Below are positions 8,963 to 13,426 of a stretch of 24,229 nucleotides of DNA, in pieces. The notes under the pieces were generated by a model. That model did no database searches, was not told the origin of the DNA, and was given only the letters and a program-made list of their open reading frames with translations. Source of the DNA: an uncultured bacterium (lineage in GTDB: Bacteria; RBG-13-61-14; CAYWKU01); the NCBI GenBank assembly GCA_964503115.1, contig CAZDAF010000014.1, forward strand, positions 1 through 24,229, in the 5' to 3' direction. The position numbers were made by a program, and so were the translations under genes. Within the stretch, counting starts at the first letter, position 1; each line of letters starts with the position of its first letter.

Positions 8963-10339
8963 ATGAACAAATATTCGAACATACGCGGTTTAATTGTGAC
9001 GGTTTTTCTGTCGGCTTTGGTGGGAGTATCCGTTTGGGCCATGTTGCCGACTGAAGCTCTTTCGACGGAAACGGAAGCATCGCCTCCGGCCACCGGCGAG
9101 AGTGAAAAGCCCCGGACGATTTACTACCTGAAGGTGAAACACGCCATCACGCCGGCGGTAGCGGATTATATCGTCGCAAACGTGCAACGCGCCAACCGCG
9201 ACGGCGCCGAATGCCTGGTGATAATGCTCGATACTCCCGGTGGGTTGTTGGAAGCGACGCGGGAAATCGTCCAGAGTATCTTCTCTTCCAGTGTGCCGGT
9301 GGTTGTTTATGTTGCGCCGAGCGGCGCCCGAGCCGGCAGCGCGGGAGTATTCATCACGATGGCCGGACACGTCGCTGCTATGGCCCCGGGCACGAATATA
9401 GGCGCCGCGCATCCCGTCGGAGGGTCAGGTGAGGATATAAAGGGCGACATGCGCAAAAAAGTCGAAAACGACGCCGTCGCTCAAATAAAATCGTGGGCGC
9501 AACAGCGGGGACGAAACGTCGAGTGGGTCGAGCGGGCGGTCAGGGAAAGCGTTTCCATCACCGATAAGGAGGCTATCGAGAAGAACGTTGTCGAAATAAA
9601 CGCCGTCGATCTGGCGGATTTACTGAAAAAAATAAACGGCCGTGAGGTCGAGGTGTCCGGCGGAAAGAAGGTGAAGCTGAACACCCAAGACGCCCAAAAA
9701 GTCGAGTTGAAGATGAGCCTTAAACAACTGATCGTAAGCACCATCAGCGAGCCGAACGTCGCATATATACTGCTGCTGATAGGCATGCTCGGCCTCTTTC
9801 TCGAATATGTGCACCCCGGAACGCTTGTCCCCGGTATTATCGGTGGAATATGCATTATACTCTTCTTCGTGGTGCAGACGATGCCGATAAACTACGTGGG
9901 GGTGGCATTGATAATTTTGGCGGTGGGCTTCTTCATAGCGGAGATATTCATCACAAGCTTCGGGCTGCTCACCATAGCGGGGTTGACATGCTTTGTCATA
10001 GGCGCGGTTCTGCTGTTCGACACCCCGACAAGCACTGTGAGTGTGTCATGGTCGGTGATCATTCCGGGAGTGGTGGTGATGGCGCTGGCGTTCCTGCTGG
10101 CGGGATTTTTAATTCTCAAGACGCAGCTCGCAAAACCTTTGGGAGGCAAGGAAGGGTTGGTTGGAGAGTTCGCCGAGGCGCGAACCGACCTCGATCCCGT
10201 CGGGTCGGTGTTTTTCCACGGAGAATTCTGGACGGCCCATTCCCAAAAGCCCGTAAAGGCCGGCGGCAAGGTCAAGGTGCTCAAGGTCGAGCACATGAAA
10301 ATCGAGGTCGAACCGGTGGAGGACGATAATGGCGATTGA
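8963..10339 (+). CDS. NfeD-family membrane-bound serine protease (ClpP-class; stomatin operon partner protein, long form)
   Basis: There is an N-terminal signal/TM segment, a ClpP-like domain (…LVIMLDTPGGLLEATREIV…VYVAPSGARAGSAGVFI…), a multi-TM region and a C-terminal OB-fold NfeD domain (…ARTDLDPVGSVFFHGEFWTAHS…KVKVLKVEHMKIEVEP). It begins 1 nt after the udg stop. Confidence 0.85.
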   Translation: MNKYSNIRGLIVTVFLSALVGVSVWAMLPTEALSTETEASPPATGESEKPRTIYYLKVKHAITPAVADYIVANVQRANRDGAECLVIMLDTPGGLLEATREIVQSIFSSSVPVVVYVAPSGARAGSAGVFITMAGHVAAMAPGTNIGAAHPVGGSGEDIKGDMRKKVENDAVAQIKSWAQQRGRNVEWVERAVRESVSITDKEAIEKNVVEINAVDLADLLKKINGREVEVSGGKKVKLNTQDAQKVELKMSLKQLIVSTISEPNVAYILLLIGMLGLFLEYVHPGTLVPGIIGGICIILFFVVQTMPINYVGVALIILAVGFFIAEIFITSFGLLTIAGLTCFVIGAVLLFDTPTSTVSVSWSVIIPGVVVMALAFLLAGFLILKTQLAKPLGGKEGLVGEFAEARTDLDPVGSVFFHGEFWTAHSQKPVKAGGKVKVLKVEHMKIEVEPVEDDNGD

Positions 10340-10634
10340 TTCGACGATATTATGGACGGTAGTCACCGTAGTGTTTTTAACGGTCGGCTTGGTGGTGTTA
10401 ACGCTATATTACTTTTTCAGGGAGCGTAAAGACAAGCCGATAGGCGGCAGGCCGGCGCTTTTGGGCGAGATAGGCGTGGCCCGCACGGACCTCGATCCCG
10501 AAGGAAGGGTGCTGGTGCACGGCGAATGGTGGAACGCGCGCGCCGATGAACGGATACCGGAAGGCACAAAAATCCGAATAATCGACGCGGATAAAATGAT
10601 GCTCAAAGTCGAACGCGCACCGGAGGACGCATGA
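10329..10634 (+). CDS. NfeD-like short form (single TM plus C-terminal OB-fold domain)
   Basis: The 101-aa product has one TM helix followed by …GVARTDLDPEGRVLVHGEWWNARADERIPEGTKIRII…, a paralogous repeat of the C-terminal domain of the preceding gene. It overlaps the long nfeD by 11 nt. Confidence 0.7.
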   Translation: MAIDSTILWTVVTVVFLTVGLVVLTLYYFFRERKDKPIGGRPALLGEIGVARTDLDPEGRVLVHGEWWNARADERIPEGTKIRIIDADKMMLKVERAPEDA

Positions 10635-11473
10635 CCTCTAAATCCCGCAGTTCCCTTAAAAGCGAATATGGGAACCAACGAGCCTATTTGGCGCGGGTAG
10701 CCGCTAAAAGAGAAAAGAGAATTTGTAAGATTACAGATGTATTGAAGGAAGCTTTTTCCGGATACATTCGCAGAGAAATCGCAGAATTTATATATTTTTC
10801 TGAAATATCCGGGGAGGAACTGGCAAAAGCGTTCTTCCAATATCCTGAAGTGTTGAAACCGGTGTTGAGTTTATGCAATGTTGCGGCAAGGGCATTGGAA
10901 CGTGACCTGGACATAAAAAATTTAAATACTTACAACCCGAGGTTAAACGAAGTAAATGCCTCTATCCTTGCTGGTTATATCAAGCCGATGCTGCCAGAAA
11001 GAACAGCTATAGAGTCATTGGTTGAAATTGATCGCATCTTTTATATCGATAAGGAAATCAGAAAAGAAAAAGGTGCTTGGGAAAAGGACATACTACTTGC
11101 TTTGAACCGCCATGGAAAGCAACAATTTCGGAAAAGGAAGTTTAACTGGAAGGGAGATATGTTTGAGCTTGATGCTGCCAGTCCCGAGGATGGCAAAATT
11201 AAAGTCGGTATTGACATCAAGCGAGTGGAAGCGAGAAGAGATATTCACAAAAGATGCGATGAGATCTTTACCAAAGCTGAAAAATTCAAAGGAGTATTTC
11301 CACGTGCTTCATTTGGAGCGGTAATATATTATCCTTTTGTAGAGGAACAACAGAACATCAGGGATAGACTAAGGTCAAGTAATATCGATTCAGTCGTTTT
11401 CGCGTCTGAAAAGGAAACTTCTATAACTCAAGCGGTAAAATTGTTATTGGGCAAGGTGAAATGGAAAAAGTGA
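10631..11473 (+). CDS. hypothetical protein; candidate Type II restriction endonuclease (PD-(D/E)XK-like) of an R-M pair
   Basis: The 280-aa ORF is in low-GC DNA. Its ATG overlaps the TGA of the upstream gene (ATGA), and its 3' end overlaps the downstream DNA methyltransferase by 13 nt. It contains the motif MFELD(181)-x13-GID(195)IK(197), consistent with a PD-(D/E)XK catalytic core. I recognised no other family. Confidence 0.4.
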   Translation: MTSKSRSSLKSEYGNQRAYLARVAAKREKRICKITDVLKEAFSGYIRREIAEFIYFSEISGEELAKAFFQYPEVLKPVLSLCNVAARALERDLDIKNLNTYNPRLNEVNASILAGYIKPMLPERTAIESLVEIDRIFYIDKEIRKEKGAWEKDILLALNRHGKQQFRKRKFNWKGDMFELDAASPEDGKIKVGIDIKRVEARRDIHKRCDEIFTKAEKFKGVFPRASFGAVIYYPFVEEQQNIRDRLRSSNIDSVVFASEKETSITQAVKLLLGKVKWKK

Positions 11474-12342
11474 CCCAACAAATATCCGATTCAAATATCC
11501 ACACTACGCACCGATTGGTGCTCGGGGACGCTCGGGAAATGGGGTTCCTTGATGATGGATCGATTCACTTGGTTGTGACTTCCCCTCCTTACTGGAACCT
11601 GAAAAAGTATAATGAACATCCCGAGCAACTCGGCAACATGGATGATTACGAGGAGTTCTTGGGGGAAATTGAGAAAATATGGCGGGAATGCTATCGGGTT
11701 CTTGTTCCCGGCGGTAGGTTGGTATGCGTGGTCGGGGATGTATGTTTATCTCGTCGCAGGCATGGCAGACACGTGGTGGTTCCGCTTCATGCGGATATAT
11801 GCGTCCAATGCCGGCACATCGGTTTCGATAATCTTAATCCTATTATATGGTCCAAGATTTCCAATGCCAGTTACGAGGTGGAGCGAGGGTCGAAATTTCT
11901 TGGTAAACCTTATGAACCAAACGCGATCATAAAAAATGATATCGAGTTTATTTTAATGCAGCGTAAGCCGGGAGCGTATCGCAAACCTACGGCTGAGCAA
12001 AGGCACTTGAGCCGTATCAGCAAAGAGGAATATCCTCTTTGGTTCCGGCAATTCTGGGATATAACCGGCGCTTCCACCAGGGATCACCCCGCGCCTTTCC
12101 CGATCAAGCTGGCGTACCGACTGGTAAGGATGTTTTCTTTTGTGGGCGACACTGTTCTCGATCCTTTTTGTGGTATGGGCACAACCATGGTGGCGTCTTA
12201 CCGGGCGGGTCGAAATTCCATCGGTGTCGAAATTGATCCGCAATACATCAAATTGGCCCGCAGCAGGTTGAGGAAGGAAATTCCGAGTCTTTTTAAAGAC
12301 GCGAATATTATCGAAGAGCAACATGCGGCGCAGACGAAATAG
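11461..12342 (+). CDS. DNA methyltransferase, beta-class N4-cytosine/N6-adenine (N6_N4_Mtase, SPPY type)
   Basis: Motif IV (HLVVTSPPYWNL) precedes motif I (VLDPFCGMGTTMVA). This beta-group order is shared with M.PvuII/M.BamHI-like enzymes. SPPY favours N4-cytosine specificity. Confidence 0.85.
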   Translation: MEKVTQQISDSNIHTTHRLVLGDAREMGFLDDGSIHLVVTSPPYWNLKKYNEHPEQLGNMDDYEEFLGEIEKIWRECYRVLVPGGRLVCVVGDVCLSRRRHGRHVVVPLHADICVQCRHIGFDNLNPIIWSKISNASYEVERGSKFLGKPYEPNAIIKNDIEFILMQRKPGAYRKPTAEQRHLSRISKEEYPLWFRQFWDITGASTRDHPAPFPIKLAYRLVRMFSFVGDTVLDPFCGMGTTMVASYRAGRNSIGVEIDPQYIKLARSRLRKEIPSLFKDANIIEEQHAAQTK

Positions 12343-12357
12343 CAAGGAAACTCAAAC

Positions 12358-12555
12358 ATGGAAAAAGTAGTGGTAAGGCGATGTGAGACTTATGATAAGG
12401 ATTTCATAAAGTCCATGATCCGGGAGGGGATGGAGGAGTTGGGTTTCAAGCCGACGGGAAAGGCCATTATCAAGCCCAACACCGTTTACGCTCACAAGCG
12501 TTATGCCACTATAAGTCCGCACGGAAGGAAAGCGCTTAATCTATTGAAGGCGTGA
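12358..12555 (+). pseudogene. truncated N-terminal remnant (65 codons) of a DUF362-family gene
   Basis: MEKVVVRRCETYDKDFIKSMIREGMEELGF…GKAIIKPNTVYA resembles the conserved N-terminus of DUF362 proteins (…KV.F.K...YD.E.v..ai...l..LGG....IKPG..VLIKPNLv), which are normally 300-400 aa. Here the frame stops after 65 codons, 67 nt before the next gene. Confidence 0.45.
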
Positions 12556-12622: not shown

Positions 12623-13426
12623 ATGGAATTTTTTAACCCTATTCTTTCAATCGGAGCGGCGGGACCACAATTTATTGTACCGATAGTCATCATCGTTTTC
12701 CTGCTCATGAGCATGATAAAAATCATCAAGGAGTATGAACGGGCGGTGGTGTTTCGACTGGGTAAATACGCCGGAGTGCGCGGCCCGGGGATCATTATCA
12801 TCATTCCGATAATCGAGCATGTCGAGCAGCGTATAGACATGCGCACCATACCGCACGATGTTCCACCGCAGGACGTCATTACCAAGGACAACGTTTCGAT
12901 AAAGGTCAATGCCGTTGTGTTTTTCCGCGTCATGGACGCTGAAAAGGCGGTCATCGAGGTCGTCAACTGGTACATGGCTACGAGCCAGTTGGCCCAGACC
13001 ATGCTTCGCAGCGTGCTCGGTGGGGCGGAATTGCAGGATATACTTCAGGAGCGCGAACAACTGAATATGGAACTCCAGAAAGACCTCGATATCCATACCG
13101 ACCCCTGGGGCATCAAGGTAAGCGCCGTCGAGATCAAGCACATAGACTTGCCTCTCGAGATGCAGAGGAGCATGGCCGCGCAGGCCGAGGCCGACAGGGA
13201 GCGTCGGGCGAAGATCATACATGCCGACGGCGAATTCCAGGCGGCGCAAAAGCTTCACGAAGCCAGCGATGTCATTTCAAAAAATCCGGTGGCATTACAG
13301 CTTCGCTTCCTGCAAACTCTGGCCGAAATCGCGACAGAGAACAGCTCGACAATAGTATTCCCGGTTCCCATAGACATTCTACGAGCGTTCACGAACCTTA
13401 TGGAAGGGAAGGGAAGTTCGGCGTAA
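12623..13426 (+). CDS. SPFH/band-7 family protein, prokaryotic stomatin (slipin)-like
   Basis: There is an N-terminal TM helix, then [13 protein letters not shown]…GPGIIIIIP…[18 protein letters not shown]…[15 protein letters not shown]…[18 protein letters not shown]…[17 protein letters not shown] align this closely with archaeal/bacterial p-stomatins such as PH1511. Confidence 0.9.

Follow-up and report, generated by a model that had tools for sequence, protein, structure and literature searches.

A candidate Type II restriction endonuclease from an unannotated family with a predicted PD-(D/E)XK fold, encoded beside an SPPY methyltransferase in an uncultured bacterium

The stretch of DNA analyzed here (24,229 nucleotides; the window) comes from the genome of an uncultured bacterium of the lineage RBG-13-61-14 (assembly GCA_964503115.1, contig CAZDAF010000014.1, forward strand) and contains two overlapping genes, the first encoding a 280-residue protein without annotation (R) and the second a DNA methyltransferase (M). 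With a probability of roughly 80%, R is the endonuclease of a two-gene Type II restriction-modification (R-M) pair. A first-pass annotation, made from the letters of the window alone, had singled out R as an open reading frame (ORF) directly upstream of, and overlapping, the methyltransferase gene, and this description is accurate: the R gene begins with ATG, and its 3' end overlaps the M ORF by 13 nt, or by 4 nt (GTGA) if M starts at the GTG codon at position 11470, the start that gene callers picked in the identical contig and also in the closest relative. This overlap implies that the two genes are co-transcribed and possibly that their translation is coupled. At its other end, the ATG of R overlaps the TGA of a short nfeD gene (101-residue NfeD-domain product) as ATGA, with a Shine-Dalgarno sequence, GGAGGA, at 10622-10627, 4 nt before the start codon.

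The identity of M is clear from its matches to PF01555 (E 5.7e-42), the PADLOC model MTase_II (E 1e-66) and PDB entry 2ZIE (E 9e-116, over residues 16-277). The SPPY motif occupies residues 41-44, within TSPPYW near the N-terminus, and DPFCGMGTT lies near the C-terminus; motif IV (SPPY) precedes motif I (FxGxG) in the N6_N4_Mtase domain, which is the order of the beta class. The 2ZIE protein is TTHA0409 of Thermus thermophilus HB8 (also PDB 2ZIF and 2ZIG), a putative N4-cytosine methylase (PMC5173035) with the same order of motifs; it is an orthologue of M, and a counterpart of the partner rather than of R itself. Given the SPPY motif and the literature on TTHA0409, M probably methylates cytosine at N4.

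A scan for R homologues in one genome per species, in which the pattern EARRDIHK was used for finding loci, returned 95 loci, 80 of which were kept; their R homologues are 44-58% identical, and all are in metagenome-assembled genomes. In 79 of the 80 loci an orthologue of M (55-76% identical; tblastn with the M of the window) lies directly beside the R homologue, in three gene orders (56 R then M, 8 M then R, and 15 convergent), which bears out the pairing with an SPPY methyltransferase proposed from the window alone. The endonuclease and methyltransferase genes are separate and tightly linked, as in Type II R-M systems generally. The sole locus with no adjoining methylase (L034) is a 2.2-kb contig that ends soon after R, and the ORF just downstream of R there (L034:1355-1783) resembles an insertion-sequence accessory protein, which suggests that such an element has inserted there or that the assembly breaks. 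No third conserved gene, such as one for a controller protein or Vsr, was common to more than 4 of the 80 neighbourhoods, and the module therefore consists of exactly two genes, with no controller protein. Pairwise distances among R proteins correlate with those among M proteins (Mantel r 0.707, a value attained in 0 of 2000 permutations), and both genes therefore travel and diverge together. The association is one-sided: R is almost never found without M, whereas M belongs to a much bigger family, with at least 7995 proteins matching TTHA0409 at E <= 1e-50, that also turns up without R, for instance throughout the genus Thermus. Such dependence of R on M is as expected for a toxic nuclease that relies on its methylase. 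In one family member of 707 residues (P0129), the same ORF encodes methylase-domain segments and, at its C-terminal end, an R domain; this is a fusion or else a gene call affected by a frameshift.

The structure of R was predicted with AlphaFold2 from a 32-sequence alignment (mean predicted local distance difference test (pLDDT) 89.2, predicted template modelling (TM) score 0.70). In the model, an all-helical N-terminal domain precedes a C-terminal domain that starts with a long helix (residues 127-161, carrying E151), followed by strands 167-173, 176-184 (E179 and D181) and 192-198 (D195 and K197), helix 202-222 (E211), strand 227-233, a helix, strand 254-258 and a final helix. This is the alpha-beta-beta-beta-alpha-beta order of the PD-(D/E)XK nucleases, and the structural matches to the model include the nuclease domains of Can2 (scores 9.5-9.8), PspGI (9.6), Cfr10I (9.4), BsoBI (9.1), a XisH-like protein (9.0), NucC (8.8), Bse634I (8.7) and BstEII (8.7), with AgeI, BsaWI, MunI and BbvCI ranking lower. 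The alignments to BsoBI and BstEII cover 177 residues each and extend beyond the catalytic core alone. With Foldseek, the best match was BsoBI (E 8e-3, probability 0.97). The first-pass annotation had named as refuting its proposal a structure prediction with no alpha/beta nuclease core, or a confident match to an unrelated non-nuclease family; the model shows the core, and no confident match of the second kind was found. We consider it highly likely that R has a PD-(D/E)XK fold with the motif described below.

Conservation was assessed in two alignments, one of 32 close homologues (A1) and one of 26 sequences reaching down to 24% identity (A2). A1 has 60 invariant columns, among them E142, E151, E179, D181, D195, K197, R198, E200, R203, D204, H206, K207, R208, D210 and E211, while only 16 positions are conserved at >=90% in A2: R30, L64, P72, R87, L93, A114, R144, W150, E151, E179, D181, D195, K197, R208, E211 and P235. 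The first reading of the sequence had placed the nuclease motif at F178-E179-L180-D181, followed by 13 residues and G193-I-D195-I-K197, and both its position and its residues are upheld: none of the four residues E179, D181, D195 and K197 varies in A1, and all are among the 16 positions kept in A2, with the conserved aspartate on the second strand (D181) and D195-x-K197 on the third, the arrangement expected of a PD-(D/E)XK site. Two further proposals fared less well. The segment ERDLDIK (residues 90-96) is not a second D-x-D-x-K motif, because D94 varies (S, G, N, Q or M) and the model places these residues on an N-terminal-domain helix; R91-D92-L93 are nonetheless invariant in it and I95 and K96 nearly so, and it was rejected as a second catalytic motif. 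The basic N-terminus had been suggested to bind DNA, but most homologues lack the first ~12 residues, and the model gives these residues pLDDT values below 50. The N-terminal helical domain may serve in DNA recognition, in dimerization, or in both.

The most conserved stretch of the family, EARRDIHKR, forms the start of the helix that follows the lysine strand. Residues 201-203 and 205-206 in this stretch differ between distant subfamilies in A2, where H206 is replaced by Q in many members, and they are candidate specificity determinants because the equivalent place in the CCGG family of restriction enzymes carries the base-reading motif.

Together, these features are consistent with a self-contained Type II cassette, R followed by M, in which R would join the helical domain at its N-terminus to a nuclease domain of the PD-(D/E)XK type at its C-terminus. 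By analogy with the fold family, Mg2+ would be bound by E151, E179, D181, D195 and possibly E211, and K197 would position and activate the attacking water. R would act most likely as a homodimer, cutting both strands at a short specific sequence, and prior methylation of that site by the SPPY methyltransferase, probably at cytosine N4, would block cutting. In this, R would work like the EcoRI-branch PD-(D/E)XK Type II enzymes.

Comparison with the CCGG family (NgoMIV, Cfr10I, Bse634I, AgeI, BsaWI and PspGI) reveals a common alpha-beta-beta-beta-alpha-beta core and a conserved cluster of basic and acidic residues where the post-lysine helix begins. E211 lies 14 residues beyond K197 on that helix, and we take this to be the same spacing as that of the K+14 helix glutamate of Cfr10I, NgoMIV and Bse634I. 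The differences are substantial. The CCGG enzymes have S/T-x-K where R has the canonical D-x-K, and their base-reading motif, R-x-(D/E)-R at K+4 to K+7, is not in register in R, which has A-R-R-D (K197 being followed by R-I/V-E-A-R-R-D). The N-terminal helical domain of R is also unlike theirs, and there is neither sequence similarity nor a match to any of their Pfam families. Membership of the CCGG family was therefore rejected despite the similarity of fold, given the out-of-register motif and the lack of any Pfam match at E <= 1. BsoBI (CYCGRG; PDB 1DC1), the best Foldseek match, is likewise paired with an N4-cytosine beta-class methylase. However, the similarity of R to BsoBI and to BstEII (PDB 9IBQ) is weak (TM ~0.39), is not accompanied by sequence similarity, and comes with a different spacing of catalytic residues. 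Membership of the AvaI/BsoBI family was rejected in view of the Foldseek E value, the lack of a Pfam or NCBIfam match and the poor conservation of H206 after the lysine strand, where members of that family keep a catalytic histidine.

Searches with R in named collections gave no assignment. There was no Pfam match at E <= 1, only noise in NCBIfam, no match in PADLOC, whose Type II endonuclease models derived from REBASE were covered, or in PHROGs, and none to PDB sequences with the single R protein or two family profiles as queries, so that the initial impression of a protein outside any named family held up. No match was found in the plasmid and phage collections by tblastn with R. Homologues are nevertheless numerous, with 640 clusters at 90% identity (E <= 1e-3), most of 270-280 residues, and 119 representatives at 50% clustering; every cluster that bears a name is called 'hypothetical protein'. 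The 80 loci span more than 20 phyla, archaea included, with carriers in Omnitrophota, Bacillota, Zixibacteria, WOR-3, Chloroflexota, Planctomycetota, Acidobacteriota, Latescibacterota, Thermoplasmata, Aenigmatarchaeota and others. As far as sequence can tell, R represents a new family inside a very well-known kind of system. One member of 520 residues (P0156) has ~260 additional C-terminal residues that match no family.

In the window, the cassette lies between the short nfeD gene, itself preceded by a second NfeD gene, and a gene for a band7/SPFH (stomatin-like) protein. The G+C (GC) content is ~0.40 in R and ~0.49 in M, and 0.53-0.57 in the flanking genes. Of 80 control loci retrieved with band7 as the query, none carries R or M, and the gap between nfeD and band7, 1988 nt here, has a median of ~86 nt in the 66 control loci with an upstream NfeD match; the cassette is therefore an insertion that splits an otherwise compact nfeD-band7 operon. 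Low GC content, insertion and spread over more than 20 phyla indicate that the cassette was acquired horizontally, and they give it the mobile, patchy distribution and island-like arrival familiar from Type II R-M systems. No flanking direct or inverted repeats above chance were found around it. Since the start of R overlaps the nfeD stop codon, the cassette, which is co-directional with the host operon, may rely on that operon's promoter for its transcription. The closest relative (P0002, 77% identical; locus L083) has the same insertion site in a related organism. Between the two, the proportions of nonsynonymous (pN) and synonymous (pS) differences are 0.125 and 0.79 in R and 0.089 and 0.57 in M, comparable to neighbouring housekeeping genes. 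These values are indicative of purifying selection on R, which has been kept intact since before the split of the two lineages, and on the cassette as a whole.

Several observations weigh against R being the endonuclease of an R-M pair. Characterized endonucleases share no sequence-level similarity with R in the library and PDB sequence searches, a few distant members of the family (P0164, P0183 and P0232) are without the catalytic residues in A2, and promoter and terminator signals around the cassette are not above chance. In addition, TTHA0409, the closest studied methylase, is listed with unknown specificity (PMC10073500).

Among the alternatives, the one that survives best retains a methylase-linked PD-(D/E)XK nuclease and changes its mode of action, R being a nicking enzyme, a two-site or tetrameric enzyme, or a Vsr-like enzyme of mismatch or other repair. 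We consider this unlikely, while noting that the two-site tetramers NgoMIV, Cfr10I and Bse634I are among the best structural matches and that the heterodimeric or nicking-related BbvCI subunits are also matched. Against this reading, Vsr-type repair goes with C5-methylases, whereas M is an amino-methylase, no Vsr or repair-nuclease family was matched in Pfam or NCBIfam, and the strict two-gene module, its three gene orders and its patchy spread are the signature of a selfish R-M pair. Less likely again is that the copy in the window, or every member of its family, has a nuclease fold without catalytic activity and serves the methylase as a regulator that binds DNA or as an aid to specificity. 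Dead PD-(D/E)XK domains do exist, and some distant members have lost the motif, but the copy in the window keeps all the catalytic candidates that are invariant in the close family, its whole ORF is under purifying selection, and R matched no helix-turn-helix or controller-protein family in the Pfam search. Furthermore, methylases of the M family work without a partner, being solitary in Thermus, and TTHA0409 was crystallized alone as a dimer. That R is functionally unconnected with M, its adjacency incidental or its ORF spurious, is suggested by nothing but the lack of annotation and is refuted by the 640 homologue clusters, the 79/80 linkage, the co-divergence, pN far below pS and the confident model. 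The endonuclease of a two-gene Type II pair remains the preferred identity of R.

In search of a recognition site, palindrome depletion was measured as Markov observed/expected (O/E) ratios for 611 motifs in the 80 carrier and 80 control loci, two sets that differ in taxonomy. Among 6-mer palindromes, depletion is strongest for CAGCTG (O/E 0.45 in carriers vs 0.80 in controls), with zero copies in 40 carrier loci against 18 expected; once the 611 motifs are corrected for, its z of -3.9 is borderline. The window contains no CAGCTG, but several other palindromes are missing from it too. CTCGAG is the second most depleted 6-mer (0.56 vs 0.80), and carrier genomes show no depletion of CCGG-containing sites and no clear depletion of CYCGRG or GGTNACC relative to controls. 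CAGCTG is the site of the PvuII system, and M.PvuII is an SPPY beta-class N4-cytosine methylase as well; it aligns with M only over the region of the S-adenosylmethionine-binding motif (E 7e-8), however, and R.PvuII is a protein of 157 residues from a different family. CAGCTG is, at best, a doubtful candidate for the site recognized by R.

The biology suggested here is conventional, a PD-(D/E)XK Type II R-M pair behaving as a mobile two-gene module. Restriction endonucleases evolve fast and annotation misses most of them; unnamed families are common, and to a specialist this one would be useful rather than surprising. With its 640 clusters it has been overlooked by Pfam, NCBIfam, PADLOC and PHROGs, and defence-system surveys of metagenome-assembled genomes will therefore score such loci as orphan methylases, which naming the family would correct. 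It also offers a new scaffold for enzyme screening, possibly a new specificity, and a route to the specificity of the TTHA0409 methylase family. A more ambitious proposal, speculative enough that we would not bet on it, is that R typifies a large set of Type II endonucleases that wholly lack annotation and occur for the most part in uncultured bacteria and archaea. These enzymes may cut a sequence or in a pattern unavailable from known enzymes, and would supply the missing cognate nuclease and the specificity of the structurally solved TTHA0409-type methylases. The variation where their post-lysine helix begins could mark a specificity element that is easy to re-target.

Table 1. Coordinates of the R-M cassette, its parts and other genes of the window (numbering from the first nucleotide of the window).
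Feature	Coordinates	Strand	Basis or remark
R gene, candidate Type II restriction endonuclease, predicted PD-(D/E)XK fold, unannotated family	10631..11473	+	
Ribosome-binding site GGAGGA and ATGA junction (nfeD stop/R start)	10622..10634	+	sequence; same junction in L083
N-terminal all-helical domain, residues ~16-120, with conserved C82-N83..R87..R91-D92-L93..N97 patch	10676..10990	+	model; A1 invariant columns
C-terminal catalytic domain (predicted), residues ~121-280	10991..11470	+	
E151 codon, long helix preceding the sheet; may be the first acidic residue in the active site	11081..11083	+	A2 >=90%; position in model; role by inference
Core motif, E179-x-D181 (second strand) to D195-x-K197 (third strand)	11165..11221	+	A1 invariant; A2 >=90%; strands from model
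R198 to E211 ('RVEARRDIHKRCDE'), start of helix after the lysine strand, most conserved stretch of the close family	11222..11263	+	A1, A2
R/M gene overlap, 13 nt (4 nt from GTG 11470)	11461..11473	+	sequence; L083 junction ...AAAAAATGACA...
M gene, beta-class N6/N4 amino-methyltransferase; SPPY at nt 11581-11592; alternative start GTG 11470	11461..12342	+	PF01555, PADLOC and 2ZIE matches
NfeD gene	8963-10339		cassette flank
Short nfeD gene	10329-10634		cassette flank
65-residue ORF	12358-12555	+	no family match
Band7/SPFH (stomatin-like) gene	12623-13426		cassette flank
Second beta-class methyltransferase gene, 322 residues	21673-22641	+	PF01555, E 2.5e-43

A different neighbour of the M orthologue occurs in Thermus and Truepera, where an unrelated ORF of 228 residues, also annotated as 'hypothetical', comes after the methylase (for example L081:5877-6563 in Thermus oshimai JL-2, CP003249), which was rejected as a member of the R family (hhalign probability 0.55%). 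It has homologues in 27 clusters, often on contigs shared with methylase matches, with none found for T. thermophilus, and it contains a D...S-x-K...E-like pattern (KSWDVAL / LLSLKS / NRIDE). This ORF may represent another endonuclease family that lacks annotation and pairs with these methylases.

Two further features of the window were noted. The ORF of 65 residues between M and band7 lies mostly within a segment of ~165 nt that is missing from L083, and probably represents part of a broken gene or a recently inserted piece, outside the R-M module. The second beta-class methyltransferase, whose DPPY motif reads FIDPPYN, is encoded after secDF in a second patch of low GC content (0.43, 21.5-23 kb) with no convincing partner ORF adjoining; it is probably an N6-adenine methyltransferase and probably solitary.
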